A stretch of DNA of 63,522 nt, filler included, from Hausera hauseri (lineage: Eukaryota): NCBI GenBank assembly GCA_046269625.1. It is 11 parts of 11 records of this genome, joined end to end, with 100 filler letters (N's around TTAATTAATTAA, not from the genome) between each part and the next. Parts side by side here need not be neighbours in the genome. Positions count along the whole stretch, not along the records: positions 27,174 to 31,421 come from JBJURY010677328.1; 10 more parts are not named here. One strand, written 5' to 3'. The position numbers and the translations under genes are program-made. The notes beneath the pieces were generated by a model, which ran no database searches, had not been told where the DNA came from, and saw only the letters and a list, made by a program, of their open reading frames with translations. This document shows, in pieces, positions 6,909 through 46,278 of the stretch (position 1 is the stretch's first letter; each line of letters opens with the position of its first letter).

Positions 6909-6914
6909 CAGCGA

Positions 6915-9900
6915 TTGGGATATTTCCAACTGATGCAGAAGAAAGCAAGGCAGCATGGAGGACTCCGCAGTGGGCCAATGGATGAAGTACAGGCGGCGGT
7001 GCCTAACGAAGTACTGCAGGACGAAACAGTACAAGGAGAAGGAAATATAATCACCGGCAGGGTGTACCTTCCGCAATCGTTTACCGGTGGCCCACGGTAT
7101 ATGAAAGTAAGCTATCTGGACGCGATGGCCCTTGTAGCTCGATTAGGAGGCCCAACGTATTTCTTGACTATGACGTGTAACGGCAAATGGGAGGAAATTA
7201 AAAGCTCGTTAAATTCCGGCAGCAGGCAGGAAGCTCAAGTCTGCAACCGCGTATTCCAACTTAAATTCCGGGAGCTGCTTAGGGGAATTGAAAGTGGTGC
7301 TTTTTTTGGAAAATTATCATACATAGTATGGGTGATTGAGTTTCAGATGCGAGGACTGCCCCATGCACACATCTGTTTCAGAGTAGCTGACGGAGGCCCG
7401 AAAACGAACACAGATATAGATAAAATAATAAGGGCGGATATTCCGGATGAAAATGAGGCCGGTGGCAGATTGAATAAAATGGTATTAGAACATATGATAC
7501 ACGGACCCTGCGGACTCGGACGTAGGACAGATTTACCATGTTGGGACGAAGAGAAGCAAAAATGTTCGAAATATTTTCCGAAACCTCACAACGAGACAAC
7601 GTACACCGATGAAAAAGGATTCGTGCATTATAAGCGTAACGCCGAAAATAAAACGTTCAAAAAATATAGAAACAAGTTGGTACAGGTGGATGACAGATGG
7701 GTAGTTCCCTACAATGACGCTTTGCTACTTTTTTGGGACGGCCATTGCAACCTTGAAATAGCTTCCACACGTAAGGCGGTGAAATATCTTTTCAAGTACA
7801 TATCTAAAGGATCGCCACTTCGTCGGATGACAGTGGTTAACGAAGCTGAGGAAATCGATGAAGTAGAAGAGTATGTGACCAAGAGGTACATCGGTGCCTC
7901 AGATGCTACTTGGAGAATTTTGGAGTTTGACATCACCGGCCGAAGTCCTACAGTAGTACATTTACCAGTTCATCTGAAGGGAAAACATAACGTTATATTT
8001 CGTCCGGGCGAGGAAAAAGAAGCGTGCGAAAAATCGACTTCAAATTTGCTATTATATTTCAGTCGGCCTGAAATAGAAGAGTTGGACGATTTAACTTATT
8101 TGGACTTCTACGAAAATTACAGAGTCCACTCAAAGAAGCCGAATGCAGCAACCCTTAAACAGATACCGTACTCGGATGGAACGCACTACGCCACGAAAAG
8201 GCAGAGAGGAGAATGCGTAGCTCGAATGTTTTGGGTAGCGCCAAATAGAGGAGAGCAGTATTATTTGAGAATGCTGTTGACCAGATATCCCTGCCGCAAG
8301 TACGAAGACTTGTATGCGCTGGGTGGACCGAACTGCAAAACGTTCCAACAGGCTGCAAGGGAACTTGGACTCGCCGATGACAAAAAGGAGTATTACGACG
8401 CTCTTGAAGAAGCCGTTCGCTTCATGAAAGCTGGTCGACTGAGGCAGTTCTTCGTAATGCTGTCGACAATAGGATGCCCGGTGCCGGAGATGTGGGAGAA
8501 GTTCAAGAGGGACCTCTGCGAAGATTTCCTGGAACACTACATTGATGATGAAGAAAAAGCTTTCAAGCTGGGCCTTATACACATAGACCGCTGTTTACGT
8601 CGACAGGGATCATCGCTTTTTGAAGCCGGTCTACCAGTAGTGGAAGACGATTCAACAGAGTTAGGCCGAGAAAGACTGCAGTACAGTAAGTCACTCCAAA
8701 AGGCATTCGTTGAAGAATGGGAACCTCGCCTTTCATCGGACCAGTCCAGGCTTTTTAACCACGTTAAGTCAATAGTAAATGGACAATGTAACGACAGAGT
8801 GATATTTTTGGATGGCCCTGGAGGATCAGGAAAAACACTACTTCTTAAAGTAATTTCAGCTTTCCTGCGATCCGAGGACAAAGTAGTTGTATGCGTAGCC
8901 AGCTCCGGAATTGCAGCACAAAATTTAACAGGCGGTACAACTGCTCACAGCATGTTTCGGCTTCCTTTAACGATGAACAAGGACAGTATGTGGTCGATTA
9001 CGAATGGATCCCAGAGAGCAGAACTTATTAGAGAAGCATCTCTGTTGATTTTCGACGAGGCACCCATGGCACACAGGAACTTGATGGAAACGCTGGATAG
9101 ATCATTAAGAGATTTAATGCAAAAGGATGTGTTGTTCGGTGGCAAGATGGTAATACTGTCAGGAGATTTTCGACAGATTCCGCCGATTGTAGAAAACGCC
9201 ATGACAAATACGGATATAGTTCATGCTTCAATTCGCCAGTCGTATATTTGGAGGGAAGTGAAAGTGTTCACATTGGTTACATCGCATAGGCTGAGAGGAG
9301 ATGATATCTACAGCGAATTCGTAATGAAAGTTGGCTGCGGCAAAGTTGAGAAACGTGTAGTTGGCGAAGGAAGAAACAAAGAAGTTCTGGTGGCACTACC
9401 TGAAATAACTCACTTTACAGAAATCGAGGAATTAATTAACGCTGTCTTCCCAAAAGATATGTTACAGGACCCTGATGAATGTTCGAAGAGAGTAATTATC
9501 TGCACTTTAAACGACAACGTCAACGAAGTTAATGATAAAGTATTAGCGACGATCGACGGAGAAATGCAGACTCTCTACAGCTTCGACTGTTTAACCGAAC
9601 AAGATGGAGTAGGAGTTGATATAGATGACGCCATGTTACACCACGCGCAAGGAAAAGGAATGCCGACACACGCGCTTCAGCTTAAAGTCGGTTCTGTCTG
9701 CATCGTGACTAGAAATTTAAACTTCGATCTGGGATTAGTAAACGGCACTAAAGTAATTATCGTCGCGATTAGTCGGAAGCTCATCACATGTCGGAGGCCG
9801 GGAGATGATGAGTTCTTCGGGATTCCCCGCATATCATTTAAGTTCCCGATTTTCGTAAATAGCCCCATAGAAATGTGTAGGCGCCAGTTTCCCCTACAAC

Positions 9901-10115
9901 TCGCGTATGCCATCACAATTCACAAGAGCCAGGGACAGACAATAGATTTTGTGGGTTTAGATTTACGATCGGATCCGTTCACCCACGGCCAACTCTACGT
10001 AGCGTTGAGCCGTGTGAGATCGCGAAATAATATTCGGTTACTCATAAATCCTGACCGGGTCATAGATGGAACACCACACACGAAAAATGTTGTATTCGCG
10101 GACCTTATTGAGTAG
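6915..10115 (+). CDS. Helitron Rep/PIF1-helicase transposase (5'-truncated by contig start, otherwise uninterrupted)
   Basis: GGPRYM..YLDAMA, VIEFQMRGLPHAHI (HUH), KYLFKYISKG (Y2), DGPGGSGKT, DEAPM, GDFRQIPP, TIHKSQGQT, HGQLYVALSRV. Confidence 0.97.
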   Translation: MGYFQLMQKKARQHGGLRSGPMDEVQAAVPNEVLQDETVQGEGNIITGRVYLPQSFTGGPRYMKVSYLDAMALVARLGGPTYFLTMTCNGKWEEIKSSLNSGSRQEAQVCNRVFQLKFRELLRGIESGAFFGKLSYIVWVIEFQMRGLPHAHICFRVADGGPKTNTDIDKIIRADIPDENEAGGRLNKMVLEHMIHGPCGLGRRTDLPCWDEEKQKCSKYFPKPHNETTYTDEKGFVHYKRNAENKTFKKYRNKLVQVDDRWVVPYNDALLLFWDGHCNLEIASTRKAVKYLFKYISKGSPLRRMTVVNEAEEIDEVEEYVTKRYIGASDATWRILEFDITGRSPTVVHLPVHLKGKHNVIFRPGEEKEACEKSTSNLLLYFSRPEIEELDDLTYLDFYENYRVHSKKPNAATLKQIPYSDGTHYATKRQRGECVARMFWVAPNRGEQYYLRMLLTRYPCRKYEDLYALGGPNCKTFQQAARELGLADDKKEYYDALEEAVRFMKAGRLRQFFVMLSTIGCPVPEMWEKFKRDLCEDFLEHYIDDEEKAFKLGLIHIDRCLRRQGSSLFEAGLPVVEDDSTELGRERLQYSKSLQKAFVEEWEPRLSSDQSRLFNHVKSIVNGQCNDRVIFLDGPGGSGKTLLLKVISAFLRSEDKVVVCVASSGIAAQNLTGGTTAHSMFRLPLTMNKDSMWSITNGSQRAELIREASLLIFDEAPMAHRNLMETLDRSLRDLMQKDVLFGGKMVILSGDFRQIPPIVENAMTNTDIVHASIRQSYIWREVKVFTLVTSHRLRGDDIYSEFVMKVGCGKVEKRVVGEGRNKEVLVALPEITHFTEIEELINAVFPKDMLQDPDECSKRVIICTLNDNVNEVNDKVLATIDGEMQTLYSFDCLTEQDGVGVDIDDAMLHHAQGKGMPTHALQLKVGSVCIVTRNLNFDLGLVNGTKVIIVAISRKLITCRRPGDDEFFGIPRISFKFPIFVNSPIEMCRRQFPLQLAYAITIHKSQGQTIDFVGLDLRSDPFTHGQLYVALSRVRSRNNIRLLINPDRVIDGTPHTKNVVFADLIE

Positions 10116-11251: not shown

Positions 11252-13755
11252 TTAGCTGATTGAAACCACTGTGTTCTGGTTTGAGGAATTGTCTGGATCT
11301 TGTATGGACTGATCTGCACCCTGTTCGGGCTTTTTGGTGCACCCCCGCAGAGGGCATGAGTGCAGAGTCTCTGTGACCTCCTGATTGGACATACGGGAGA
11401 GGGCGTCGGCATTTGCATTGCTTTGTCCTCTCCGGTACTGGACATCAAAGTCAAAAGCAGCCAAGTGGGAGACCCACCGTTGCCCTGTGGCATCTAACTT
11501 TGCAGAGCTCATGATGTACTTGAGGGGGTTATTGTCTGTCTGGACAGAGAACTTGCGCCCATAGACATGGTCATAGAATTTGTCTGTTACCGCCCACTTC
11601 AGGGCAAGGAACTCTAGCTTGTGGGCGGGATACCTTGCCTCTGCTGGACTCAACCCTCGGCTGGCGAAGGCTATGACTCTCTCTATGCCATTTTGAACCT
11701 GGACCAACACAGCACCTAGTCCTTCCCCTGATGCATCTGTCTGAAGCAGAAACGGTAGGTTGTAGTCTGGGTAACCCAACACTGGCGCAGTCGTAAGTCT
11801 GTGCTTTAAGGCCAGGAATGCCTCCTCACATTCCTCTGTCCATAAGAATGGTGGGTCGGATGCCTGGCCTTTTTTTCCCTTTCTTTTCTTCCTTCTTGGG
11901 TCACCACCTGTGAGTCGATATAAGGGAGCTGCTAGGACAGAGTACCCACTGACATACCGCCTGTAGTAGCCAGCAAACCCCAGAAATTGCAGCCTGGACC
12001 AGGCACCTCCCTGCCTGGTCCAGGCTTTTACTCTCTGAATCTCCTCTGGGTCAGTTCGAATTCCCTCAGCAGATACCAGGTGACCTAGGTACTGCACTTC
12101 TTTTCTCATCAGCTGGCATTTAGACGGCTTAAGTTTTATGCCGTGCTCCCGGAGCCGATCGAACACCAACTGCAGTCTGTTTAGATGCTCATCAAAGGTT
12201 TTAGAAAAGATGATAAGGTCATCCAGATATATCAGAAGGTGGGTGAAGTTCAGGTCTCCAAAGCAGCAAGTTATGAGCCTCTGGAAGGTTGATGGAGAAT
12301 TCTGTAACCCAAAGGCATTCGGTTGGCCTCTTACAGACCCATTGGTGTACTGAATGCTGTTTTGTGTTTGTCCTGCTCTGCAACCTCCACCTGCCAATAG
12401 CCTGAAGTGAGGTCAAGCGTAGAGAAAAACTTGGCCTGACCCAATGGTTCCAGAGCCTCATCTATTCTTGGCAGGGGAAATGCATCTCTTGTGCTGCAGG
12501 CGTTCAGCTTACGGTAATCAATACACAACCGTAGTGAGCCGTCTTTTTTTGTCACCACCACTACAGGTGAAGCATAAGGACTCTTACTGGGCCTTATTAC
12601 CCCTGCCACCTCCATCTCGATCAACATCTTCCGGACATCTTGCCACTGTGATGGGGGAATCTTGCGGTAGGGGAGCCTGAACGGCTTAGAGTCTACTGGT
12701 GGAATTTCATGTTGCACTGTCTTTGTGTGACCATAATCTAGAGGATGTTGGGAGAATACATCAAAATTCCTCTCTACCAGCTTTTGAAGAGTGGAGCGCT
12801 GGTCCTCGTCCTCCACTGCAGCTTTATTCAGGTCAACACAACAACTCGATATTACCTGAGTCAGACTCAGACATGTGTCTTTGGACCTGCTTTCATGGCT
12901 TTGGCCCTGCCTTTTGTCTGAGAAATCCACAACACCATCCACTAGGGACACATTGGCTAGGTGTGTGTGTGGCTTGATGATGACTGGATGTGGAGACAGG
13001 TTCATCACTCTGACAGGGGTGCATCCTCTTTTCACATTAGCAAGGACCTTGGCAACCAGAAGGTCTTGAGGAAGCTTCAGGGAGTGGTGGCCCTCAATCA
13101 GTGCTGTATAAGTCCTTCTCTTCGGGCCGGCAGTCACCTTGCACATTAGATCCATTTCTTTTCCCCCAGCGATGTGTATTTTGTGGCCTGTATACACAGC
13201 CGGACCCACTCTGTCTTCCACATTATAATGTCCTGTGTCACCCACCTCCAGGAGGGAGGTGTACCATTCTGGATGACTCTCTCTGATATGCTGGAGAAAT
13301 TGTTGGCCATATGTTGCTTGGAGATGGGTTCTGGAGGCACGGAGAACATTAGTTCCTATCAGCAGAGGGACAGACAGGCGATATTCTGAGTCCTCAACCA
13401 CAAAAGCTGGCACATTCTTAAACTCTTTCTCCAACACTTTCAAGTTAATGCGTAGGACACCATGGTGGGTTACACTCTGACCGGCTGCACCTTCTATAGG
13501 TATTAGAGAGGGCTGTAACTTCTGCTTTTGAAGGATAGGGTGGCTGCACCAGTAGCTGTGGGTAATACTGGTTACCTGAGAGCCGGAGTCAATGAGCGCT
13601 TTGCACTTCATTCCACTGATTTCCACCTCACCTTCATTTCTAGGGCCCACTAGTGGAGTGCCCTCTCCTCCATCAGTCATCTTTATGTCTTGTGGCTGGG
13701 GGTCTGACTGCTCGCCCATGGTTGCCCCGGTGACCACAGGCTCTACCCGTTTAAA
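11252..13755 (-). pseudogene. pol: Gypsy pol (protease-RT-RNase H), one frameshift near 12340, truncated before integrase; teleost-type
   Basis: ALIDSGSQV, SPYASPVV..RLCIDYRKLN, YLDDLII, TDAS, LEFLALKWAV, TDNNPL, NADALSR. Confidence 0.95.
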
Positions 13756-14214
13756 GGCTGAGCTGGGTGGGGGTTGTTCCCATTCACTTGACTGGGGTCT
13801 GGTAACACTGCTCTGCAGACTTTGGCTATGTGCCCTTGTTTACAGCATCTGAGGCATGTCACAGTTGAGATTTGGGCTCGGATTGGAGGCTCTGTGGGTG
13901 CCTGGACTTGTGGTGGTAGGACAGGCAATGGAGCAGCAACTCTTGATTCAAGATTGGTCAATTTGGTCATCTGCTCTGCTTGGCAAAGAGCTAACTTTTT
14001 AACCAGTTCTGTGAGCTCTGACAATTCTGATGCATGGGTGGTCTTCTCCACATTCACAGTTGGGCTGCTGCCTGATGCAGTCTGGATCTGGGTGTGAGCT
14101 CGCTTTGATTTGTGGAATGACTAGAACTTTTTAGTTTCTTTGGTCATGTCTCTGAGCCTACAGCTCTCGGAAGTTTAAGAGCCTGGGCTTAATGGAGTGA
14201 TTCTCATATATGCT
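13743..14214 (-). CDS. gag: Gypsy gag C-terminal part with CCHC zinc knuckle
   Basis: CLRCCKQGHIAKVC; overlaps start of pol frame. Confidence 0.85.
13749..13755 (-). promoter_or_regulatory. -1 ribosomal frameshift slippery site T TTA AAC (gag-pol)
   Basis: CCT TTA AAC GGG TAG at gag end, followed by a GC-rich potential stem-loop. Confidence 0.75.
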
Positions 14215-22900: not shown

Positions 22901-25565
22901 TTAGGAGACAAAGTGTTGTTCCAATAGGTACTCATTCCATCTTCTCATTTGAGAAATATATGATAGTAAAGTCCGTCGTTTCTTACTTCTGGCAGTGATT
23001 AAAGTCCATGTTCTTCTAGTGTTTTCGATGGGTTTAGATCTTTTCTCCTTTATCTTCTTTGGTGAGAGGTTATTTTCATCATTATTATTATCATCGTCAT
23101 CATTCTTGTTTTTGTTTTTCTGTTCCCATTCAGCATCCTTTTTTATCAGGAAACAGCTGGCTATGAATGGAATTAATGCATAAATAGTTTTCCATGCACA
23201 TCCGGCAGCTTGTTTAATGCCGTATCCTTTAGTTATCATGGTCAATATCGCTTTTATAAAGGCAAAGATATAATAAAATCCTATCCATCCAGAATTAAAT
23301 TGACCAAAAGACATATACCATCCCCATGCGGTCGCAAATATATCTTTAGCTATTTTCTTGGCATATTCTGGTCCCATCAAATTTTCCCAGTTAGCTTTCC
23401 CGGTGTGATCAACTAACACTCTCATTGCCATCTTTGTTAAAATTTTCTGTCTCTTTTGGGGGAACATCATCATTCTTCTATGATTTTCCATATCTTGTTC
23501 GCAAGACACACCCATCTTTACCAAATCTGTCAATGGCTTGTATGTTTGTTCGGTCTTCAAATTGATTAAACTAATCCCTCGAGGTAGAGTAATCTGCTCC
23601 TTTTTCGGCATTCTTATCCATAAATTGTCGCTTAATCAAAATGCTGGCGACATAATATATGTACAATTTTCATGTACATATGGTTTCTCCATAGGATCTA
23701 ATAATATACGAGTAATTGGTTGCAAGAAACGTGGCTTTTCCTTGTACCAAACAAGTAACTCCATGGTACAGTCTGTTGTTGGTCTCAGTTTGACAGCTAC
23801 TTTTGTACATTCAAAAGTTACAAGTGTCTCACCCATTGTTCGAGAGAACTTTCCTTCTGCATCGGGAGATTCAGCTGGATCTTTTATTATTCCGTCCGTT
23901 ATCGCTAATAGATATATTCGGTTTCTAATTATCTCTCTGTTGATTATCTGTTGATTATATCTCTGTTGACATAATTGATACCAGTTTGCTTTTCCAGTGT
24001 GATCAGCTAACACTCTCATAGCCATCTATGTTAAAACTTTCTGTCTCTGTTGATGGAACATCATCATCCTTCTATCTTTTTCCATATCTTGCTCAGCGTA
24101 CACACCCATCTTTACTAAGTCTGTTAATGGCTTATATGTTTGTTCAGTTTTCAAATTAATTAAACTAATCCTCCGAGGTGGAGTGATCTGCTCCTTCTTC
24201 GGCATCCTTATCCATAAGTTATCGCTTAGTCGGTATGCTGGCGACATAGTGTATGTACAATTTTGGTGTACATATGGTTTTTCTGCCGGATCCAATAATA
24301 TCCGGGTAATTGGTTGCAAGAAACGTGGCTTTTTTTTATACCAAACAGGTAACTCCATGGTACAATCAGTTGTCGGCCTTAATTTGACAGCTACTTTTAT
24401 ACACTCGAGAGTTACGAGTGTTTCGCCCATTGTTTGAGCAAATTTACCTTCTGCATCGGGAGACTCAGCGGGATCTTTTATTATTCCGTCCGTTATCGCT
24501 GACAGATATATCCGATTTCTAATTATCTCTCTATTCAGCTTACAATCATTTAATATTATCTCTCGATACATAGCATAAATATTTTCTTGTTGGAAGTGAT
24601 AAATAAAATCGATCTTATTATCGAAGTAAAGATGAGGCTTTACTTCTGATTTATCAATCTTCCTCTTAGCTTTTGTTATTTCTGTTGTGGATAAAAATAT
24701 CCCTTTATAATTTGTTCAAAATATCGTGTAATCACATCTGGTATCACTTTCTAGTTTAAATCTCATTCAATCTTGAGGATTTACTGAATATACTATGGTA
24801 GGAGTCTCAATCATATCCGATATTCGATCTAGTCTACTCTAAGATATTTCTTCTTTATACATTCGGCCTTTTGTTTTGTTAAATTTTCCTAGCTTTAAAA
24901 GAGCTAACTGAAATTAATCTCTCAACTTCATATGACATAATTGATTCACCAGTGTCGCATTATTTATTATAGTAATCACATTCAGGGAATGTCGTCATCG
25001 TCTCTGAGTATAGTTCGAAGAGGGCATCGTATTCCCTCAATTCAACTTGATAATCTTCTATGGCCACTATATTGTCTAAAATTTCACCACTGATATTGTT
25101 GGACTCACCCTTAAAATATCCTGTATTATCAATTGTCCCGGCAACAAAAATTCTTTTATTAATGATTTTTCCTTTCTGATCCTTCAAACGAATATTTCCT
25201 ATATTGATCTGTTTTGTTACAAAAGCCTCTATACACATTTGTTTACATACAGGAAGTGGCTGGAACGGAGTGGTTGGTACAACTATTGCTGAGTTTTGAT
25301 ACCAATATTCACAAATAAAGTGAAAATGATTTTGTCGATCAAAACATTCTTTCACCTTAGTTTTCACAAATTCCGACTCTTAATAAACGTAGTATTCTTT
25401 TCCGATATTGTAGTTAATGACTCCGGATTGGCCAATTGACATTTTTCTAAGTTTAGTAAGGAATGTATAGGACCTTCCTTAACTTGACTAAAATCATAAG
25501 CAATGATTGAAAGTGCTTTGGGCATCAGGCTAAACAGAAGGAGTATAGGTGTAATTTTTGTTAGC
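22901..25565 (-). pseudogene. Chuvirus-type (class III fusion-like) envelope glycoprotein, disrupted, with internal 594-bp duplication
   Basis: Signal-like ILLLFSLMPKALS then IIAYD..SLL.LEKC; MYREIILNDCKL; GETLVTLEC.KV.VK.R..DCTMELPVWY..FLQPITRIL; C-terminal hydrophobic segments. Confidence 0.85.
23387..24534 (-). repeat. In-frame tandem duplication (period 594 nt) inside the glycoprotein
   Basis: GGATCTAATAATA at 23694 vs GGATCCAATAATA at 24288; near-identical peptides in ORFs 24026-24571 and 23636-24025/22901-23611. Confidence 0.95.
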
Positions 25566-27073
25566 CATGATAAATCGAAATCTGTTTGTAGATTTCGTTG
25601 GCTCACCGATTGTTGTTGTGGACGATATTCTGTTCGTTGTTGTGTAATTGGAGCCGATTCATGTATTACTGTATGAACCAAACTGGTAACCCATCCACCT
25701 CTACATTCTACACATCCTTCAACATTGGCCTTTAAAGCACTTGTAGCAATTTCTATATTTCTCCCTATCTTTGTCCCGTTCGGATTTACTCCATTCATCA
25801 CCAATACCTTACACAAGAGATAAGATATGGCTGTTACGATTTTATTTCCAGATATGCCGGTGCCCATCATTCTAGATATTATATCTCTTTTCTAGATTTC
25901 ATTTATCCTCTGATTTTTTGGGATATCTGCAAATTGTTCACTAATCTTTGCGACCTCATTCTTTATAACATGCATTAGTGAATCCGGTATTTACAGATTA
26001 GTATTGAACTCAACGAATGCATTGTGCATTCTTCCTAACAAGGTATGTAGTAATGTTGTCAGTAATACATTATCTACGTCATATTCATCTTCTGTTGTTA
26101 GCAATCTTCGAACGACTTCGTCATCTCTGGCTTTCCTACCTTTCAACTGATAAAGTTTCGTCGTTCCTTTTGATCTGCAACGGTTTCTTTTATCTGTTAG
26201 CATTTGTTCTGATATAGACATATTCAATCCCGTTTCTATTTGTTGAACCTCATGCTGATGTTCGATTTTCCGTTTTTCTTTTCGCCTAAAATCGGTGATA
26301 ATATCGTCAATTATTTCTTGTTCTGACTGTTTATAAGTAATACACACAGGATTGTATCGGTTTTTCCAAATACCTACTTCATACAAAGTTTCATGATTCA
26401 ACAGAGTGCGTCCATAGAAACGTAACTCTATTTCTCCTCGAGGCTGAATAATCCCATTGATATTATTTTTCAATGTCATTATTGTATCCAATGACTTCAT
26501 TCTTAAAACATGAAAATCTTGGTTATACTGTTGTAGTGTAACCATTACTTCGGGGTTTTCTCGGACTGTCCTCACTCTATCTGCATATCGATAAATTATG
26601 TATCGTACGATATTCTGATATTGGCATGTACCCGCCGCATACATTAACAGCAAATCCAGTAAATTAGCAAATTGTTGATGGCTAATTGTTGGCGATAGTA
26701 GCATAGACAGATCTTGCCTAAACCGAGTACTATTTATTATTTCTTGGTTGGCATAGCTGGATATTTTTCGAACTATTTCTACGCCATCCTGATCTATTTC
26801 CACAGATAATAACTCATAACTTGTGGATTTTTCCTTTATTTTCTATTTCGTTATTCCTTTTATCTTCTCCTTGAGTGCACTTTCTTCACTGGTCTTACTT
26901 TTTTCACTTTTACTTCCCAAAGGCGGATTGAGTTCCGGAATCTTCAATTCTTCTCCTTGTATTAAAAGTTTATCCTTTTTCTTGACCCTTTTCTTTTCAA
27001 TATCCGATTTTTATGTGGGAGTCTTTTTGGGCCTACCAATAAGAACAATGACTGAGCTTTCGGCGTTCATTGT
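25566..27073 (-). pseudogene. Polyprotein segment upstream of and in frame with the glycoprotein; contains a ubiquitin-like domain (about 26333-26548)
   Basis: ORFs 25991-26803 and 25364-25870 are in the same frame (120-nt gap with stops); DTIMTLKNNI..P..IELRFYGRTLLNHETLYEVGI matches the ubiquitin pattern. Confidence 0.7.
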
Positions 27074-27173: not shown

Positions 27174-28855
27174 AATCAAGAAGGTACATTTTATCTTGCC
27201 TTTCAGAGTGATATATCCTGCCCAATGGAGCAGTGCCCACGTTGCCAACAGTTATCACCATTTTAGCATTTCTTTTATAACTATGAAGAACTAAACCAAC
27301 GTTTGTCACTAACGTAACCCCGTTAACGATGCTACATTAACAATTAAACCCAGATCACTCGGTTACATCGATGTTCATACTGAGACTGATTCGAAGGACG
27401 GAATCTTTCTTCTAAGGGGCAGAAATGTTAAGGTTTGTTAATTAAGGCCTGAAAACATTTCGAAAACACGAAAATTCCAAAAACATAAAACATTTTTAAA
27501 ACATGAAAATATAAACAGATCGAATTAACAATTACTGAGGCATTAACACTGATCCTGATTTATCCATGCTTAACAATATTTTGTGATTCAAAAATCAAGA
27601 ATGATTTAACCGAGACTATGTGAATATTCTGTGATTAATAGTAAATCCTTGTGTACATAAATGTCCTTTATCTTTTAATTTTGTTAAACTTTTGATGGGT
27701 GTCTCCTCCGTTTCTCTGCACTGTACCCAAATTGTATCGAAAAAGCGGCAAAGTAATAAATTGATTAATCAAACTGGTAGTAAAATGCTTGGTGATAAAT
27801 TGTGCCAAGGGTTCAGTGTGTATAAGTATATTTATCTTAAAAATTATAGATATTTTATTTCCTTATTATTTTGCAAAGATTATTTCTATTATAGAATTGA
27901 AACTATTTTTATATTTTTAAATTTTGGGAATAAGACAACCGTGTGATTATGATAATATAATTTTGGTTGTCAATCTTTTAAATATAAGAATTAGTGTATG
28001 ACTTGTGGCGAGAGTTTATAGAGAATTCGCATACTACATTATGACTGACACGTTTTGAAGGCCGACGTCTATGAACCGAGCAAGAGGTTAATTGAGAAGA
28101 TTGTTAATGCTCATTAACAAATGGACGAATTTCAATATGTGGTTGTTCAACTTAAGCTTCAGAACAAGATGACTGTTGATAGTGAGTTATTTTGTTGTAG
28201 GGTTATTTGAAGAATTAAAAGTACGATTATTAGCATTGAAATTTAAATTGCCACACATCAGTTATAAATTTAGGCAGTATAAATATTGGTTCAAAGAAAA
28301 GTATCTTAATTTCTACTTTTGCAAACAACTGTCAGACGTATTTAAGTATATGTACAAATGGTCCAAACCATTCGTCACTTGAAAACTGTCACGACGCAAT
28401 GAAAAAATATGTTAATTATTTATATGTTTAAATTTAGTGAGTTGCTTGTGGAAGAGTAAGAAGATTGCTTAATTAGCACAAGTTTTCTGTTAACTTGGCT
28501 TCACAAATTTATTTAGAAAATAAATAAATAACTCCAAAGAGAAAAGTTATATTAAAACCACAACCGAACCAAGTAAATATAAAACAAATAGATCATAAAC
28601 AGAATACTCACTTATTACTGATCGGTCGAACTCATAAAATTTGTGGTTCAAAAATCATAAAATTTATGTTGTGTTGTATTGCAGTTTTACCAACTATTAA
28701 ATAGTTATTTGCCAGCTATTTTTAGGTTCAAAATAGTGGCAGAGAAAATTTACAGGAACAGTATGGTAATTTATTTATAGATTGTATTTAGTCATTTATT
28801 TTCAGAGTTCCCCGATCAATGGTTAAAGTACACAGTACACAACATTCCCCGACCC
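27174..28855 (-). mobile_element. PPT and start of a long 3' LTR (LTR begins at 28844; distal end not located)
   Basis: Minus strand GGGTCGGGGAA|TGTTGTG about 290 nt after the ORF stop; same arrangement at 45567. Confidence 0.65.
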
Positions 28856-29139
28856 ATAAAAATACGCATGCAAAAATAAAAAGGGGAAACAAAGATACAT
28901 AAGAGGTATATAAATACAAAATGAAAGTCACGAAGGAACAAGAATTTCAGTTAGTGAATAAGTAATGTTCATATACAAAGTGATACAATTAAAATGAAAT
29001 GAGTTTACAAAATATACAGGTGAAAATCAATGTCACGATCAAATGTTAATGTTAATGTTCTCATCTGATTATTCAACGACGATATCTGATTTGTATCTGG
29101 ACGACGAAACTGAATAGGAACTGATCTGGTTTTTGCTAT

Positions 29140-31421
29140 TTAATCATCAAGATCCACGTTTTCATAGTCGATGCGCGATTCGATAAAATCTTCTTTTTCG
29201 GGTTTTGAACCTTGTCTGGGCCGTTCTATTGGGATCAATATGGGTTGCTTCTGTTTCATTAAGAGCAGGTATTTGATGTGACCGTTAAAAAATGTCTCCG
29301 TAATAGCATCAGAAGTTAGTGTAGTATCCAGTCGTATCCGTAGCTTCGTGTTTAGTGAGATTCCATAATTTATGGGTAAATTTAACACTGCTACTGGACT
29401 CCGATAGGGAATAATGAAATAATGATTATTGGGCCTCTGATATATCATGCCAATAAGAAGGTTGTTCTCTGTACTCCATTTGTATAATTTTCTTGAGGAG
29501 ATGGTATCCTTTAAAAAATATGGTCGATCGATTCTGTGAATTGGTACCGGTAGATTCAGGAAATTCTTTTTTATTATTATTCCGAAGTTAAACTTTAATT
29601 CTTCCTTATTAATCAACGTATGTTCAATTTGCAGGGCCAATGTTTCGGTAGGGGACGGTTGAGTTTGACTTGCCATGCTAATCGTTTTTACTGGGTAACG
29701 CCAACGTCCAAGTTCACTTTCTTCGTCATCTTCTATGTTCTGGGGGGCCAGTATCTGCTGGATATCCATATTATCAATTATATCCTCTTCATTATCGCTT
29801 TCGGCGTCTTGTATTTCCACATTTTCTGGTGTAGCCAATTCTAAGTCTTCTTCTATGAAATCTTCCTTGCTATCGATCAATTTTTGGCTATTTGTATTAA
29901 CTACCTCTACTTCAATTTTGTGGACCCATGCAAATTCTTGTAGATACTTCTCTCTGCAGTAAAACAATTCTCCAACGTCTACTATGTTTTCATTTATCTT
30001 GTCAGGTGTCCAATTAGGTTCGCGTTTGATATCTGAAATCTTCTGAAGGATATCTAAAGCCAATTCCAGTTTCCCGTTGGTATTTTGTTCGTACATTTGC
30101 CCGTTCCTATGTTTTGGTAATCTTAGCTCCCTGGCTACATTCGTTATGTCTATTGTATTGAACGATACTCCGGTGACATCCGGGTGTTTCAATAGGTCAA
30201 TTGCACCAGCCAAATAATTTGATGGCACCTCGAACATTTGTAATGCTCGGTGTATGTCCAGTCCGATGACAATTGTTCCGAAAAGCCATTGAATGACTTC
30301 TTTTGAGACTTCGAAGATATCAAAACCATGGGCTTGTAAGGATTGAAAATCAATACCGTGCCTACCGGTATTGCAATTATGCACTCTAACTCTGTTCACA
30401 ACCAGGGAATGGTACAATATTTTACCCTTGATGTTTGTTATGGTCACTTCTAAGGGCAGTGAAGTATTATCCGGTGAAAATCCAAAGGATACCGTTAGGA
30501 TTCTAATTGTAGCTGACTGGCTTGTTTGCAGGTAATTTAATCGTGCATTTGCAATGTATTCAGGCGGAGTTTGAACTAGGACCATAGGCCTAGGTAAGGA
30601 TAAATGTTTTTCTGGCAAAAGCCATTCCAACATGATTACTAGAGGGATCCGATTCGGCCGGATTTGAATTAAATCTACACTCATGGGTGTATTTATAGCC
30701 AGTGATTCTTCCTCGAAGATGGTGGAGATATTGGATAGCGTGTATTGCGAGTTCTTTTTAGTTTTTAGAACGGCGGTTCCACGTGCCATATGTAGAATCA
30801 AACCATCTATTGATGGACATTCTGTGATAAATTCGTCCATATTTCTTTGCTTGGGTTCTGTTACAGTGATTATTTTTGCATGTCTATTGACAGTGGGACC
30901 ATACTTCAAATGATTCGGTATTTTAGATATTTGCGGGAACAACAATTCTGGATAGATTGACGCCTCACGTCTTATATGATTGTAGAAGGATCTCGCCATG
31001 GTTTTGGTAAAGGATGAATTTTTGGCTCCGTACTGTGCCAATAACTGATCGATGGGCAATATATCTGCATGGAAGAGAGGAAAATTTGTGGATGAGATAG
31101 TTTTATGGTGAATAGTATTTTCTGCTCTCATTTCAATCATGTTTGGTTTGTACTGATCTTGAAAGTTTTGTTTTTGGACTGAGTGTCGTTTTGAAATCTG
31201 TATTGAATTGAACTGACGTTTGAGTTTGTTTTGGTTTGAAAAAGGGACTGAATAGAAAAATTTGTCAAATTTATACTTACTTTTTGGTGTCGTTGTGCTG
31301 TCTGGTAACCAGACCAATAATAAAGCTGTAAAAATGGGACCTATTGTGCGTGGCGCATATGTGTGCATGCTAACTTGCGATGACATCAGCTGTGGCTGGT
31401 CACGCGATTTTAGCGGGCAGT
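29140..31421 (-). CDS. Large accessory protein (>748 aa, 5' open) with a degenerate DEDDh/REX4-like domain, acidic linker and conserved C-terminal domain
   Basis: Uninterrupted ORF; EVTITNIKGKILYHSLV..NTGRHGI..EVSKEV..GTIVIG resembles the REX4/ISG20 core; C-terminus homologous to 45880-46278. Confidence 0.8.
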
Positions 31422-31521: not shown

Positions 31522-34500
31522 TCTTTATTATTACCTATCCTTTGTCTGCAAGTGTTTATTATTCTTTTTCTTTCTTCTTTAAATGGTCTAGCTATTTCAT
31601 CATCATCTGGTAATTCACAAAATATTATATGATACCGTATTGCATTCAATTTACCCGAAAATCCACTTGCGTTTACTGTATCAAATTTATCTATATCCAT
31701 ATAATCCTCCGGGGTTAATATGGTGTTCACATCTCGTTCTAAGTAATCGTTCCATACTATCCGTGCTTCGTCTTCCTCAAAAAGTTTTATATCTTCTCGA
31801 ATAAGATCATCCTTTATAGCCATAAGTGCGTAAGTCATCCAACAATTAATCGCATAAGTTTCAGACTGAGAATTAGTATGTAACTCCTCACTATAATATC
31901 TAAACAGGTCCAAGCATCGATTAGCTCTCTTTGTTATTCATTTCGGAGTTCTACTTGCTAGTAATTTCGGAGAGAGTCCTCGAAGATAGTTAGTTATACT
32001 AGTTATAGGGAATGATTTAGTTATACCAGTTATAGTAAATTACGGTGGTCTTTTTTGCAAAAATGAGTAATTAACATTCGTTCTCTTCGACTTCCAATAA
32101 ATAGGGGTAGATATTTGTTTCTATCTCCGTATACTATACTTTCTTCATATGTTAGATCATTTTTTCTATTAGAAAATCAAATGATCGAAGGAAACAAATT
32201 ATCTGTGGTGTAGAATGACTTTTTAATCGAGCCTTTATTAACGACTCATGTTTTGGACACATAGGTTCATTACCTAATATTCCAATCATTTCGTTCCATG
32301 TTCCTATCACGATTTTAGTTGGTTGTAACCATATGGGTTGTAATTATATTTCCATTATAACTCGTTGTAGTAGACAAAATCCTTGATAGTATACCCTAGT
32401 TTGAAAATCAACCCATGGGCTGAATTTTACATCATCTATCGGAATCTTGTATGAGACGTATAAAAGACTGGATATTAAAAGTAGTTAATAATCATAGGTT
32501 GATTTCTTAAAATCTATTCCTGTTTCTTGTCTTAGTCGATTAAAATATGATTCATATAGAATCATATACAGTTTCATGAAGTTTTCTGTAACCTCATGTG
32601 GTAGTTGATCTATACTACCTTGCAGTAGTAGACAGTTAACAATATGTCTACGTCGTTCTCTAGGTGTTTCCCCGTATATAAGAAGTTTTGTATCAGGATA
32701 ATCGGGATAAAGTAGAGTGGCATAGTCGGTTTTTGGTTCAATATCGTCTAACGACTGTTCGTTTCTGTTGGCGATAATGCGCAAATTCGTTATTGTGTTT
32801 GGGATATCTTCCTCTTCTGGGCATATTCTTGTTGAATTTATCGGAAAGTGTGGTGGTTTATATACCAGTCTATACAACTCTTGGTCCATTTCTTCCCTTA
32901 ATGATGGAAGATTTACTGGGTTTATTCTTAAGGTATTTACTAATCTAAAATAGGGAATTACTTGATTAGCCATTGTATAATTATGTATTCCTTCATTATG
33001 GTAGCCAAAATCGTCTTTGTCTCATGTGTCGTTACTTTTGGTATCAGATTAATAGCCTCTCGTATTGCCTCTATTAGCTCTGGTGCTACATACTTTTTAA
33101 TTTTATATGGTTCCGTTCACTTCCATTTTTATTTAATTCTTCCATAGCCTCCTGTAGTGGTTTAGGTAGCTTCCTCCATTCTTCGTTATTAGCGTAATTT
33201 TTCCTCCCTTTCTTCAAAGGAAGTTTATATGTAGAGTTAATAATCTTCCAGCTTACTCTTTGATTTGGAAATGGCAATCTTTTCCCTAAGTGGAAAGAGC
33301 ATTCATGGATTATATTCTTCTTCCTATAGTCTGTCATTATTTATGTTAGATTGGAATAATCATCTTCAAATTGTGTTTGTTTTTGATGTTGTTTTTCAAG
33401 TAATCGTTGATTTGATGAAGGATCCAGGTGCATCTCCTCCAGTGGAAAACTTGAAGGTACTTCTTGGACATGATCTACTTTATTCTTACTGACTTCGTTG
33501 TTTGTTTCTTTATTTCTCCCCAAGAATTTATCATTCTTGTTATTATGCGGAAAATTCCTGCGACGACTCATCTTCCTATACTTTTTGGTTACAAATGTAT
33601 TCTTCACGCTGCCTTTTGAAAGGGTCAGCTAACACTTGATAATTGTTCAACATGCAGAACAACATTCTATATCGTAAAGCATTTAAATTGCCTGTTAGTT
33701 CCTTTTCATTTACTTGTTCCAGCCGATTAATTTCGATACTATCTTCCTCTGTTAACGGCGTATCCTCATTCCATTTCTTCTATTTTTTCTTTCCTTAATT
33801 CGTCTTTTATTGTCATTAATATATAAGTCAACCAACAATTAACCATAAACATATCGGATGTTGTCCTATTTATCAATTCTCTTCCGAATTTCCTATATAA
33901 GCCAATACATCTCTTTCCTATTTCTCTACCTTTCCTTTGAGTTACAAATTTTTCGCATAATGGAGACGTTTGCCGTAATAACATAAACATATCTATATTG
34001 GGTAGTTGCATTTTCTTCTCGCTTGCAGTGTTAATAAAAAGAATTCTTTCTTGCGCGCTACCAATAAACAGAGGTTTGTATCTTCTTATGTCCCTGTAAT
34101 CGGAATAAGCTGATATAAGTGAGGTTTTCTTGTTAGGTGTTAATTTATGGCTATGATTTCATGATTTTTATTGTAGATGTAATGTGTCGGCTCCATATTG
34201 GAATAAATTCGATTTGCTTGTGCTTCACTATTCATCCTTAACGTTCTCACTAATTTGTCATAATTCAGACATTCTCTGAACGTTTGATAACCATAAGGAA
34301 ATCGGAAAGAGGATTCCATTGCACTTACTTTGGGTTCATCAATTATGAGAATTGTATTATCCATATTTCCAGTCATTTCAAATTCTTGTTTACCATGACG
34401 TCTATTTCGATTGAAGTTTGGGGCGCACACAATTCTTCATTCACCAAAACATTTATCCCAATTGAAGTTTGGGACGCTTACGATCCTTAAAAATTCCATA

Positions 34501-36781
34501 CTGGTTAAAATACATAAAACTTTACTTGGTGGTAGTCCAGTGTTTAAGGGTTTTTTAGGCTCCCCTTCTTCGGGTATCTTTACAAAATTATCCATCTAGA
34601 TATTATTGTTAGGTTCTGTTAAATCGTCATTCCGTTCAGCTTTGCCACTGCCGCACAACGAGTCCCCGTTTTCTTCCATTTTCGAAGATTCTTCGCTGAG
34701 GTAAATACAGGTGTTTTGCTTCTCGAAAGTGTTTAATTGTTGCATCTCTTCCGTTGTATGAATCAATTCCTCCTTTTTCTTACTTAATCGTAATTGACAA
34801 TTACTTATTACGTCCTCTCGTTCCTTTTTGTACATTGCAGCCTTCTGCTGATTATCGTTTAGCAAGCAGAACAATAATCGATAACGTAAGGCATTTATTC
34901 TGCCCGACATTCCCATAACATTTACTTGTTCTAGTTGATAGATTTCTTCCCTGCCTTCCCTGGTTAATAATGTATATATATATCTGTATAGAGAGAGATA
35001 TTCCACAGTATTCGAATTTCTTCTTCTTCTATTTCCTCCATTTCTTGCCTTTTCAATTCATCCTTTATTGCCATCAGTGTATAAGTCAACCAACAGTTGA
35101 CTATAAACGCATTAGACGTTCTTTTATTCACCAGTTCTCCTCCAAAATTTTGGAATAATCCGATACATTTTTCTCCTATTTCTTTGGCTTTTTCGTGAGT
35201 TACATACTTACCACATAATGGAGTCGTTTGTCGTAATAAAGCAAATGTATTGATAGTAGAAATTTGTGGTATTTCTTTTCTAAAATAATGAATAAGAAAA
35301 TTTCGTTCTTGCATACCACCAATAAACAGAGGTTCGTACTTTAGCAGATGGCTTGAACAATTCGATATCGTCCACTGTTCTTCATTATCATTCTCATCGT
35401 AATCAACTGATTTAGATTTACTTAATCTCCAATTAACAGTATGGGCATAACGGATTAGTTCTATCGGAGTAAATATTTGATTAGATAACCATATTAGCTC
35501 ACATATTTCTCTCAAATCTTTTACTAATTTATCGTATTCTATGCAATTGCGTATTGACTGATATTCATAAAGGAACTCCAAGGGTGATTTTTTCAAATAT
35601 TCCGCTCGTTTTTGTGTCGATGTATTAGTGAAGGTGTAATCAGATCCCATTTTATATCATCCGCAGAAACTTGATTTGACATATTGTCCATTCCTTCACC
35701 AACAGTATATGTTCCATTTTCTTTCTCATTATCGGGTGTGTCCTTTAAAGGATTTGAGACTTTTATTACTTTCTCTCGTTTGGAAAAACATTCATCAGAT
35801 TTGTCGTCGTCATTACTAAAGAATTTGCCCATCATCAACAATGAAAGTATCCACAATAATATGGAGGTCCATGAAAAATTAGGGCGATGAGATGTAGCCT
35901 CAACTGCCTCTTCTGTACTAATCGTAGAAAGCAAGCATATTCCCATAAGGAACAACGTTCCCAATGAAAATGTAAAGTAACCTTTGATACCTAATGATTC
36001 GCGCTTTTTATCCTTTTCTTGAAGGTCTTGGATATGCATTGATCTTGTTTCGTTAGCCATTTTGTCCATATATTTAATGCTATTTCCTGCAAATTGTAAT
36101 CGATCTATCTTCATCCATTGTTCAGGAGGAAGATTACTATCTAATGGCTGTCCCATTCTTCTGTTCCAAACTCGTTTAACTTCCTCTACCCCGTTATTGA
36201 GTTTTCTACCTCCTATATTTATATTGTGATGTTTAAAAATTTTTATTGCTCGAGTAGTTGCTACATAATCATGATGTTGCGATCTTCCTTGACTAGCTAA
36301 ATCAGGAATCGTATAATATACTTCTTCACAACTTATCTTTAAGAAAAATTTGTCCAGAGCGGTTAATGCATTAGAATCCAATTTTAGGTCTTCGCAAAAT
36401 AATTTTATTATGGGCTTATATTGTTCATCTGTTATTCCGCACTTTTCGTGGTATTTACTAAGGAAATTTCTTAATTCCGTTACACTATTTATAGGTCCTT
36501 TGAGTAATTGTTGTGCGTGATTTATGCGTTCTGGAGTAGCTAACAGGAAATTCTCCAGCCTGTGTCGATTAGCTGCCTCTCTGGTCAATGGGAGTGGTGG
36601 CAAGTTCCCCCCTTTCTGTTGAGGTAATTCGAAGTAATTCTGTTCAGTTGGTTTGACTTCTTTGCGTTGTATCTGTTTAGTAGGGTCTATTTTCCTTAGC
36701 TTAGTATCGTTATACTCAGGGAATTTTGGACTTTCTTCTGATTGATGTTTTTCAATTTCCTCTCTTAGTCGTTTAATATTT
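31522..36781 (-). pseudogene. Decayed large polyprotein: two hydrophobic helices followed by 3-4 copies of an unrecognised domain
   Basis: Repeated PLFIG..ER, LLRQT.P, CIGL, NCW(L/M)TY.LM.IKD(E/D)L, G.SG..NA.RY..FC motifs; two TM-like stretches in ORF 35593-36603. Confidence 0.75.
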
Positions 36782-42625: not shown

Positions 42626-45578
42626 TAAAGGTCAGCCTCGAGAATACGATTAGGGGCAATTTAGGAAGCTTATTCTCTCAATTCATTATCTATACGTGTC
42701 ATCACCTATTCATACTTCTGATATTCATAACCTCTTCATAATATAAGTTCTAGTTCACTATGTTCGAATTTATCAGCGGCACTTCATTAAATATTAGCCA
42801 TGAGCTAAACAAGAATATGGATTTCATTTTACTTATGTCTATAAATTTTAAATAGAAGCGGGTTTCGAAACAGTAATCAACAGATAGACAACAGAAGTGA
42901 TGAGTCTATTTACATCTTGAAATAATCATATAAAATATACGGATGGCTCAAGTATGAATTAGTGTGGATAGCAAAATAAATACAAGTATTAATATATCAA
43001 AATACAGGTATTTATATAAATAAAAGTCGAAAACTTTTATTCGAGTTCGAATTATCTAACAAAATCAATCAAATAAAATCGGCCATTCGAATTGACTGTA
43101 ATTCCTTGCATACTCATAAGCTACATAAATTCATAAATATTAAATTTAAGTAATTCGGGATTCGTATAAATTGAGAGTTCAATAATAATATACAAAATAA
43201 CAATCGAAATATGAAGCTATACAAGACATCGTCGTCTTAGATTCCCATTAATCCAGTCATTCAGTCCCAAACCGGCGTCCTCTAGATAGTTTTACAATTA
43301 AATTCAACTGGTATACTAATTATACTCAATATAAATATATAATGAATTCCCATCGGACACCAGACTGAAATACAGAGTTGACGCTTTCATGTAGATCATA
43401 ATGATGTAATAGTATTAGTTTGTCACGTTTCTCTTTATCGTCAAATTTTAACTCATCGCAATTATGTCCTGTTAACCAATTGATAATTCTTCTAGTTTCT
43501 CCGACAATCGTTCATACCACATAGCATGCATCAATAGACTAAATACTTGAAATAATCTCAACCAAATTTTATATGGCAATTAGTAACATATTATTCCCGA
43601 TGATATTAAATCGACTGAATCTAGAATATACTTCACATATATATATCCACCCAGATTTGGCAATCTATCTATGGGACCGAAGTACGATAATTCTGCTCTA
43701 TATATCTCAAGCATCAATATATAATCTCTGGTGAAAATGGACACTCATATAACTACCTTCGGTGGAAGGTCTATTTATTCAAGGTCTCGTCATCTTCCTT
43801 AATTTTTACTGCCGTTTCAGTTATCTTCTTTTCAACTTTTATGTTGTCTCTGATATCCCCATTTCATAGATATATAAATTGCTACGTTCATCTCGTCAAA
43901 TAATTCCTAATATCTACAATCAATATCATCGATCATATGCTCCACTCCTAAGCTCCCAACCATCCCCTTTTCGATCTTTTACCTATCTAAACAGTGATGA
44001 CCCTATACTTTAATTTATAAATTCTATATTCTCGTTCCTTTAAATAATAGATTAATTCAACCATTTCTATATATCAATGTTGATCTGTATCGTCTGTTCC
44101 GTAACATTTCCCACGCAAGTATTCACTCATTCTTTCCCAAAATCAACAGTTTATTCATCGTATTTATAATTTATAAGACTTTATTACAAAAATACTACAT
44201 AGACAAAATGGGATTGAGCAACTAAGGAGGTCGATTAAATGATACGGTGCTTAGAAGTATTTATATAATTACCGTTTATAACTTTCATTTGAAATCTTCC
44301 ACCATCATCAGTCACGCTATCAGCATTAGCCTGCATTCCAGTAATCACGGTCATTCCAACACTTGGTACTTCTTCATCGGAAGAGGTGATATTCGTAGAC
44401 GGATCAGAATTCAAAGTTGAAATTTTCGTAGATCTTTCAATGATAACACTATTCATAACCAAATAATGATAATAAGACACTAAAATACAACATTCTCACC
44501 AGTAAAAACAGTCTAGTTGAAGTACTTGGAAATCGTACTTGGATTACTAAGACAAGATAAAGAAATTCTCAATTTTGGTTGGTTTAGTTTGTTTTCGGTC
44601 CGTTTATATAGCCTCCAAAATGTAAATTTAATTTTTTTAACTCTGTCATACGATTCGTTTTGATATTTAAATTTGATTCTTCAATTTGCGTCGATCGTAT
44701 TTTTCAATTCAGTTACTACCCATGTCGATTTAGTTACTACCTATGTCTTTCGTGTTGTTTTGATTTTCAATTCGTGTTGAACGTATTTGTTAATTCAGTT
44801 ACTACCCATGTCTTTCGTGCTGAATTATAAGTTTGTGTTTGGAAAAACAAAATTCGATTTCCATAATTTAGTCTGTTACTAAGTGATTTATTTACCCTTT
44901 TTACTTTTGAAAATTCGATTTTTATATTTCCTTATTTACTTTTACAAGTTCGTTTTATATTTTCTCAACCGCAATCAATCAACCGACCATCACTCAGCCG
45001 CTCCCTAGTGGGTTCACAATAGAATTTAGAAGAACAGAGACAGTAATGTATACCCATCAGTGGGTTTGACAAGATAAAGAATTAAAGAAAAGAAAAATAT
45101 ATTTGACATTAAAGTATTTACAAAATTAATGAAATCACCAATACCATACAGTAAAGTATTTGCAAATATTAAAGTTAACAATGTTATTTTTCAGTTACAT
45201 GTTATTGTATTACACTGAAATTGAAATATGAATTCGTAGACTGGTAAAATTGATAAAGTTGGTATTAGTATGTTAAGGCACCCTTAACAGTACCCAAAGG
45301 AAAATTCTAGAGACTTAAGCTCAAAAATTTGTTCAGTTTTGTTGAATACTGCCTGTTTATATAGTTTCAATAATCTAAATTTAGTTACGAAATCGGGTGA
45401 GAGAATTTTCTCTCGGTAAACCCGAAGACCTATTTTTAGCAGTTCATGACAGTCTACAACAATTTATTTTTAGTATCAGAATCGGGTGAGAGTATTTTCT
45501 CTCTATAAGCCCGATGATTTAATTTTAGACTGCTAATTAATCAGCAGCGATCTACAATTCTACAACACTCCCCAACCC
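42626..45578 (-). mobile_element. PPT and long (~2.9 kb?) 3' LTR-like region; LTR start at 45567, end tentatively ...TTGACA at 42626
   Basis: GGGTTGGGGAG|TGTTGTAG; TATATAA at ~44604-44610; short tandem repeats upstream of TATA; end coordinate tentative. Confidence 0.55.
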
Positions 45579-45879: not shown

Positions 45880-46278
45880 TCATCCATCGAGATCCACACT
45901 CTCTTGATTGATTCTGGTATTAATTACATCGTTTTCATCTGGTTTGTATCCTGCTCGAATACGTTCAATTGGTATTAAAGTAGGTTGTGATTGTTTTATC
46001 AGCAGAAGGTATTTCAAATGTCCGTTATAGAAAGTTTCAGTTACTGCATGAATACTATTTGGCGTAACAGGTTTAACTTTTAGTTTTGTACTAAACTGTA
46101 CTCCGTACTTTACGGGTAGTTTTAGTACAACGGTCGGACTTTGATAAGGTACCAAAAAATATTGATTATCAGGTCTCTGATATATTCCTCCAATTAATAT
46201 ATTCCTAATCGAATTCCATTTTGATAACTTTCTGCAGGAAATAGTTTTGCTCAAATAATATGGTCTTTCTATTTGGTG
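45880..46278 (-). CDS. C-terminal domain homologous to the end of the 29140-31421 protein (partial)
   Basis: LIG.IYQRP.N.YF..PY.SP..VL.LP..YG...TKL...TETF.NGH.KYLLL.KQ.QP.LIPIER...VDLD shared by both. Confidence 0.9.
   Translation of the reverse strand, partial: HQIERPYYLSKTISCRKLSKWNSIRNILIGGIYQRPDNQYFLVPYQSPTVVLKLPVKYGVQFSTKLKVKPVTPNSIHAVTETFYNGHLKYLLLIKQSQPTLIPIERIRAGYKPDENDVINTRINQESVDLDG

Follow-up and report, generated by a model that had tools for sequence, protein, structure and literature searches.

Among described elements with long terminal repeats (LTRs), those closest to the one treated here are the errantiviruses of GAG-ENV-POL order, which carry an envelope (env) of the herpes simplex virus (HSV)/gB type and are reported from Platyhelminthes, Nematoda and Bryozoa, for example Smed_errantivirus_1 and _2; in the account given by PMC13524379, two S. 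mediterranea errantivirus entries span about 14.8 kb. Planarians also harbour the giant gypsy elements Burro/GYPSM1 (PMC6431247, citing Grohme 2018 and Jurka 2007), and Burro, as portrayed there, has a single giant open reading frame (ORF) in which env lies in frame between gag and pol. In addition, the bdelloid rotifer LTR elements Juno and Vesta encode a DEDDy exonuclease as ORF3 (PMC5408684). The present analysis concerns an element of Hausera hauseri (GenBank assembly GCA_046269625.1), met twice in a stretch of 63,522 nucleotides (nt) made of 11 contigs with N-linkers between them, hereafter the window. An earlier note had pointed there to a polypurine tract (PPT) followed by TGTTGT, lying about 300 nt after the stop codon of homologous proteins in contigs 5 and 8, and had taken that protein for the last gene of an LTR element family.

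Very probably, this module forms the 3′ end of a Ty3/Gypsy element that is about 15 kb long and present in high copy number, and the protein preceding it is the tail of a polyprotein with a catalytically dead nuclease-like domain that likely acts by binding. Like the GAG-ENV-POL errantiviruses, with their spans of about 14.8 kb (PMC13524379), the element is multi-copy and combines a Ty3/Gypsy pol with an env, predicted to be of class III type, between gag and pol. The accessible text of that paper mentions no post-integrase membrane protein or exonuclease for them (the word 'exonuclease' occurs 0 times in its main text), but the comparison is one of descriptions and they may carry the same tail unannotated. 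Like Burro as described in PMC6431247, it encodes one polyprotein of 4,200-5,100 amino acids (aa), with a CCHC gag and, in frame between it and the protease, a mononegavirus-like fusion protein; where a SUMO-like domain precedes env in Burro, there is a weak match below cut-off (PF11976, E 0.013, 15.8 bits against a cut-off of 23.8). Unlike Burro, which exceeds 30 kb, the element measures about 15 kb and its LTRs stay under 1 kb. On its most informative contig, C555450, Pfam returned no match for the BIR, MATH and ankyrin cargo of Burro, nor for its BCL2-like and dUTPase-like motifs, whose published calls were made by HHpred; a cupin or exonuclease tail is not described for Burro in the accessible parts of PMC6431247. 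In other words, the element works like Burro and the errantiviruses, and by size and BIR/MATH/ankyrin cargo it is not Burro. From these likenesses, its host would be a flatworm. With Juno and Vesta it shares the capture of a DnaQ-like 3′-5′ exonuclease, placed at the 3′ end of the LTR element; theirs, as presented in PMC5408684, is a DEDDy enzyme in a separate ORF, with catalytic residues intact and in place of env, whereas here it is of DEDDh type, fused, dead, paired with a beta domain and found alongside env. The gag-env-pol order is therefore already published, and the post-integrase tail we could not find in print: the literature searched held no description of it, and the figures and repository sequences of PMC13524379 and most subscription papers, which were outside reach, may hold one.

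The junction and the end of the element

In contig 5 (JBJURY010677328.1) the tract GGGTCGGGGAA runs directly into TGTTGTG on the minus strand, with the T of TG at 28844, and in contig 8 GGGTTGGGGAG runs into TGTTGTA on the same strand, with the T at 45567; these two junctions are the only matches to GGGTNGGGGARTGTTG in the window. The upstream stop codons end at 29140 and 45880, which leaves 295 and 312 nt between stop and TG, and the two proteins are 58% identical over 131 residues (E 2.6e-45). As the earlier note had it, the untranslated regions (UTRs) and LTR bodies of the two contigs are not obviously alignable, the best alignment being 35 nt long at E 0.025. The features around the two junctions are as follows.

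28856..29139, minus strand: 3′ UTR of contig 5, placed by the junction position
28845..28855, minus strand: PPT of contig 5, GGGTCGGGGAA, from the junction match
28414..28844, minus strand: first ~430 nt of the contig 5 3′ LTR, then cut off and followed by unrelated repeats
45880..46278, minus strand: last 132 residues of a diverged polyprotein copy in contig 8
45579..45879, minus strand: 3′ UTR of contig 8
45568..45578, minus strand: PPT of contig 8, GGGTTGGGGAG
45322..45567, minus strand: first ~245 nt of the contig 8 LTR, with two 72-nt direct repeats

Both LTR copies in the window lack the far end of the LTR. In contig 8, homology to the other fetched LTRs ends after ~245 nt, and contig 5 departs from the LTR family at about 28414, where the contigs of run X2 depart too. 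The contig 5 DNA past the cut was considered as LTR cargo and rejected, its pieces matching other repeats that have no primer-binding site (PBS), PPT or LTR hairpin.

The genome assembly searched comprises 869 Mb in 909,086 contigs. Across it GGGTNGGGGARTGTTG occurs 201 times, against 5 for its reversed control, and among the 53 fetched contig groups that include the C-terminus and no less than 450 nt beyond it, 42 carry the junction 195-413 nt (median 304) past the stop and 11 have none; because of these two results the junction is not a product of chance. The DNA that follows TG is multi-copy. Moreover, in L006, L060, L090 and L239 the LTR copy starts with this TG while the DNA in front of it is unrelated, and the 'UTR' is therefore not part of a longer LTR, an alternative that was rejected on this ground.

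When 30 loci were tested with the end of a related LTR, that end was reached in 21, and in 6 of these it is followed by two bases and TGGCGCCCGAAC; three of the six (L239, L244, L245) have a non-PPT flank at the LTR start, as expected of 5′ LTRs, so that the 5′ LTR followed by a PBS, for which the earlier note had proposed to search, does exist for related LTRs. The 13-base PBS occurs 146 times in the genome (2 for its control), and supplement 1 of PMC13524379 gives its complement over 12 nt as tRNA Lys_UUU. The LTRs measure about 540-900 nt, not the long LTRs that the earlier search settings had presumed, and end in ACAACA, ACATCA, ACAATA or ACAAGA. The bases between PPT and TG are mostly AA and those between LTR end and PBS are TT or AT, a mirrored arrangement. 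Such two-base spacing is typical of retroviral DNA ends. On C555450 the distance from LTR start to LTR start is 14,458 nt, which with one LTR of 775 nt gives an element of about 15.2 kb; the contig ends 76 nt into its second LTR, and three DNA runs against this LTR returned no piece spanning it whole. No target-site duplication was seen on L247, the sole candidate solo LTR.

Taken together, TG...CA LTR ends, a PBS after the 5′ LTR and a PPT before the 3′ LTR, all characteristic of Ty3/Gypsy, are present, and the flagged module is a real and ordinary LTR-element end; a single-copy sequence after TGTTGT, never followed by a PBS, is not what related LTRs show. By retroviral practice, a tRNA-Lys would prime the minus strand and the PPT the plus strand, and integrase would trim the mirrored AA/TG ... 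CA/TT ends.

Further signals recur in the fetched LTRs (for example L003, L054 and L099): a TATA-like box near nt 120-145, an AATAAA-like word with a short hairpin after it, and CCCTCAG at a distance of about 45-70 nt from the LTR end. Most also show a GT[GA]AGT donor-like site. A single LTR stands between PPT and PBS in L003, L020, L034, L040, L049, L129, L164, L211 and L254, and also in L230, and on C299944 the gag regions before and after the single LTR are only 84.8% identical. These contigs may be tandem arrays sharing an LTR, or an effect of assembly collapse.

One polyprotein from gag to the tail

A search with the C-terminal domain gave 763 candidates, of which 150 were scored, and one of these, C555450, contains an open frame of 4,293 codons with its first Met at codon 54. 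Above the Pfam cut-offs it matches the Monjiviricetes fusion glycoprotein (PF24664, E 5.7e-75), RVP (protease), RVT_1 (reverse transcriptase), RNase H and rve (integrase); the gag and CCHC matches are weak and below cut-off. The order in one frame is gag (CCHC), spacer, signal, fusion glycoprotein, protease, reverse transcriptase, RNase H, integrase, signal, ectodomain, membrane segment and tail, the pol part thus following the Ty3/Gypsy order. Specifically, a signal-like stretch follows the integrase and leads into an ectodomain of ~270 residues; next come a membrane segment and a homologue of the contig 5 protein, which aligns over its whole length to C555450 residues 2432-3168 at 51%. The entire order, env between gag and pol included, recurs on C299944, where the frame is interrupted once, in RNase H. 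The frame runs unbroken from integrase to stop on C555450, C299944 and C142980, and the adjacency of integrase, ectodomain and tail is found also on C142980, C904423, C369260, C77950 and C147468. In C468835, whose exonuclease part is 95% identical to that of contig 5, the second membrane protein lies in the same frame. Judged from these reading frames, the protein before the module is the tail of a single polyprotein of ~4,200 residues and not the separate last gene that had been proposed.

By its PF24664 match, env is a predicted class III fusion glycoprotein; the nearest env-pol protein found (P0014) shows 34% identity. The post-integrase ectodomain with its membrane segment is predicted to be a second membrane protein, whose model reached a mean predicted local distance difference test (pLDDT) of 43 with no Foldseek match, its atlas score of 0.77 being uninformative. 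Host signal peptidase and the element protease would cut the polyprotein, and the fusion protein would let particles enter cells. A routine PPT-LTR junction anchors the end of a compact enveloped gypsy element whose accessory content exceeds the gag-env-pol descriptions in the accessible papers, and the presence of a second membrane protein prompts the question how target cells are chosen by such elements.

The tail and its probably dead exonuclease domain

The tail comprises, in order, a short hydrophobic stretch, a beta domain, a DEDDh homologue, an acidic linker and a C-terminal domain, located on contig 5 as follows.

29140..31419, minus strand: contig 5 frame of 759 aa, open at the contig end, beginning just past the second transmembrane segment
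31303..31344, minus strand: short conserved hydrophobic stretch, residues 26-39, possibly signal-peptide-like or a membrane anchor (hydropathy and copy alignment)
30610..30897, minus strand: predicted cupin / double-stranded beta-helix domain, residues 175-270 (AlphaFold pLDDT about 70)
30025..30522, minus strand: DEDDh (RNase T family) exonuclease homologue without catalytic residues, residues about 300-465
29650..29994, minus strand: acidic, low-confidence linker
29143..29622, minus strand: C-terminal beta-rich domain of no recognised fold, with the conserved end motif E-[NS]-V-D-L-D-x

The AlphaFold model of the tail has a mean pLDDT of 44 and is better at residues 175-270 and in parts of 630-750. 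For residues 175-270 the best VIA-align match to cupins has Z 8.7 and a root-mean-square deviation of 2.7 over 81 aligned residues (Foldseek E about 1e-3); most of the top 50 rows are cupins or other double-stranded beta-helix proteins, and the score lies near the level of a common arrangement. The model thus appears to indicate a common fold and not a function. A direct homologue search with the 759-aa protein, over proteins of 417-1329 aa, gave no match at E<=0.001, the C-terminal domain had no Pfam or PDB match, and the tail model had no meaningful match in a viral structure library. One remote relative (P0064, 24% identity) has at residues 735-741 the same ENVDLDD heptapeptide that closes the contig 5 protein, with a RING finger next; this heptapeptide is possibly a docking or cleavage motif.

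Atlas features pointed the tail to the RNase T exonuclease family (0.81), a lead only. A profile built from 46 natural copies of the tail then finds 10 remote proteins, over the beta domain and the domain next to it; the match to one of them, P0067, has E 2.2e-12, and P0067 itself scores above the cut-off of PF00929 (RNase_T). In all, 2 of the 10 exceed that cut-off and 3 more match below it, and the DEDDh residues are all kept in 5 and not in the other 5. In the copies of the H. hauseri genome, the canonical DEDDh residue is found in 0/72, 0/74, 0/82, 0/78 and 0/76 at the five positions, while the replacement residues are strongly conserved (Ser 71/74, Gln 75/78). The alignment with the intact relatives is gap-free through the first motif, with no acid at or beside it. 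The median ratio of nonsynonymous to synonymous substitution (dN/dS) is 0.085 for the exonuclease domain, from the 213 usable of 4,005 pairs, most being saturated and the pairs not independent; the C-domain has 0.099, integrase 0.115 and the second ectodomain 0.147. A PF00929 search of the same genome gave 2 matches, neither among the contigs known to carry the tail. By alignment, then, the tail domain is a putative DEDDh homologue without catalytic residues, and the tail is under purifying selection; since the nuclease-like domain lacks catalytic residues and is nonetheless selected, binding rather than cutting is its likely activity.

The intact relative P0067 belongs to four metagenome loci (L230-L233), in which it forms a separate last ORF with its own ATG; ORFs for RING, TRAF/MATH and coiled-coil proteins precede the intact beta-domain/DEDDh gene, the RING and TRAF/MATH genes being found in the distant relatives L231 and L233. 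In L230 the intact exonuclease ORF is followed by an LTR-like stretch of ~1.6 kb, the same PBS and gag. Given these last-ORF relatives, the beta/DEDDh module marks the 3′ end of a wider Burro-like group, and from its residues it would be active in some Burro-like elements and dead in others. A nuclease that some lineages keep intact, and that others conserve in a dead form, offers a natural comparison of how an enzyme may turn into a binder against host RNA defence.

Possible roles of the tail and competing explanations

The arenavirus nucleoprotein exonuclease, which is among the atlas rows (row 22), has an anti-immune role. Maelstrom and EXD1 are inactive DEDD derivatives, as cited in PMC5408684, and it is by analogy with these two that a binding role is predicted for the dead nuclease. 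All three suggest how the tail may work, with a DEDD fold that binds RNA or counters RNA sensing by the host, and their homology to the tail does not go beyond the superfamily. On this analogy there is roughly an even chance that the tail is an RNA- or protein-binding pseudo-enzyme that would shield the element from host RNA surveillance.

Several points weigh against this account of the element and its tail. Contig 5 has no physical link to integrase, and because the assembly is very fragmented the long contigs may be mosaics of copies. Between C904423 and C77950 the proportion of synonymous differences (pS) is 0.12-0.23 in the integrase core and ectodomain and 0.88 in the beta domain and exonuclease, a jump that would reflect recombination or a chimeric contig. 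The exonuclease part is poorly folded in the model (pLDDT about 35), and neither it nor the rest of the tail gave anything significant against Pfam and PDB sequences. Its identification is transitive, at about 20% identity, and for this reason the third to fifth catalytic positions rest on one alignment; the small, non-independent set of usable dN/dS pairs counts on the same side. Lastly, the conserved 14-residue hydrophobic stretch before the beta domain could mean that the tail lies on the luminal side and does not meet cytosolic RNA.

That stretch is the starting point of a less favoured though serious explanation. The element is the same in it, but the tail would be secreted or displayed on the virion surface, with the third hydrophobic stretch as signal peptide; the former nuclease would then work beside the second membrane protein, as a scaffold in attachment or in signalling to the host. 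A conserved basic-hydrophobic stretch does follow the second membrane segment and a loop of ~45 residues, often behind a Met; a hydrophobic N-terminal start is seen in 2/5 remote relatives without catalytic residues and 0/5 intact ones (small numbers), and a luminal location would account for the loss of catalysis. Set against this, the stretch is short, at about 14 residues, and its hydropathy is moderate, reaching 2.26 in contig 5 and staying under threshold in C555450. We consider it rather improbable that a spliced subgenomic RNA yields the tail as an independent protein, which would make it a last gene in its own right and its in-frame fusion incidental, since integrase continues into the tail without stop or frame change on three diverged contigs; the free-standing exonuclease ORF of L230-L233 and the donor-like site of most LTRs speak for it, and such an RNA is compatible with either the binding or the secretory role. 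Improbable to a higher degree is an active nuclease that uses other residues, or a domain that is no DEDDh homologue. The low-confidence model and the strong conservation of the replacement residues would suit this idea, but the gap-free first motif, without an acid there or beside it, argues otherwise, and the atlas lead names the same family. Hardly credible is an assembly chimera, the 4,293-codon frame joining a gag-env-pol element to an unrelated tail-bearing repeat: the great number of contigs speaks for it, as do the runs of tail, LTR, PBS and gag, a typical collapse pattern, but the order recurs on C299944, and integrase, ectodomain and tail on the five further contigs named above, in lineages only 30-70% identical in the C-domain.

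A broader proposal, which we regard as doubtful, makes the element a complex endogenous retrovirus of an invertebrate, whose single polyprotein would hold a two-part envelope: a class III fusion protein ahead of pol and, past integrase, a separate glycoprotein of attachment type. Its captured beta/DEDDh module, found in active and dead forms across Burro-like elements, would repeatedly have become a non-catalytic blocker of host defence, and a further selected micro-protein would be encoded within the LTR.

Diversity of the family

Single-linkage clustering of 69 distinct C-domain sequences, all from fetched loci, gives 43, 28, 17 and 10 clusters at 90, 80, 70 and 60% identity, respectively. 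With 17 clusters at 70% identity, the 'at least two subfamilies' of the earlier note greatly understated their number. The idea that the tail had been swapped onto a young core was rejected, synonymous sites being near saturation in both core and tail of the two longest contigs. The fusion protein is 96% identical between these two contigs at a pS of 0.68 (one pair), and its conservation near synonymous saturation suggests that cell entry has mattered for the spread of the family.

Small ORFs in and after the LTR

An ATG-started ORF of about 35-65 codons occupies the far part of the LTR, probably U5, in 15/45 LTRs examined (for example L003, at LTR nt 438-626, and L017, L020, L034, L055 and L099). 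It exists in two subtypes with a common ERLE-F/L-F-F-A core, and the contig 5 LTR ends just short of its position. Its codon test on motif-chosen sequences being circular, 27 DNA-selected matches were used instead, all compared with one reference: the third-position difference is 0.186, against 0.075 and 0.086, a pattern absent from two control LTR stretches. In 18/21 PBS sites examined, another conserved ORF, located upstream and about 50-77 codons in length, begins just past the PBS (8-12 nt past it in L020, L034, L040, L129, L239 and L254); its ratio of nonsynonymous to synonymous differences (pN/pS) is 0.44 in 9 motif-selected cores. From these codon patterns, both small ORFs look to be under selection.

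Other contents of the window

Contig 6 (31522-36781, minus strand) contains several mutually similar ORFs with no Pfam match. Contig 4 (22901-26842, minus strand) holds a broken copy of a different env-bearing element, with a weak ubiquitin-like match followed by PF24664 pieces that include an internal duplication; its env is about 30% identical to that of C555450. Finally, contig 2 carries a 1,068-codon frame resembling a Helitron Rep/PIF1 helicase and an unrelated gypsy pol (6909-10112, plus strand, and 11252-14120, minus strand), recognised by eye.

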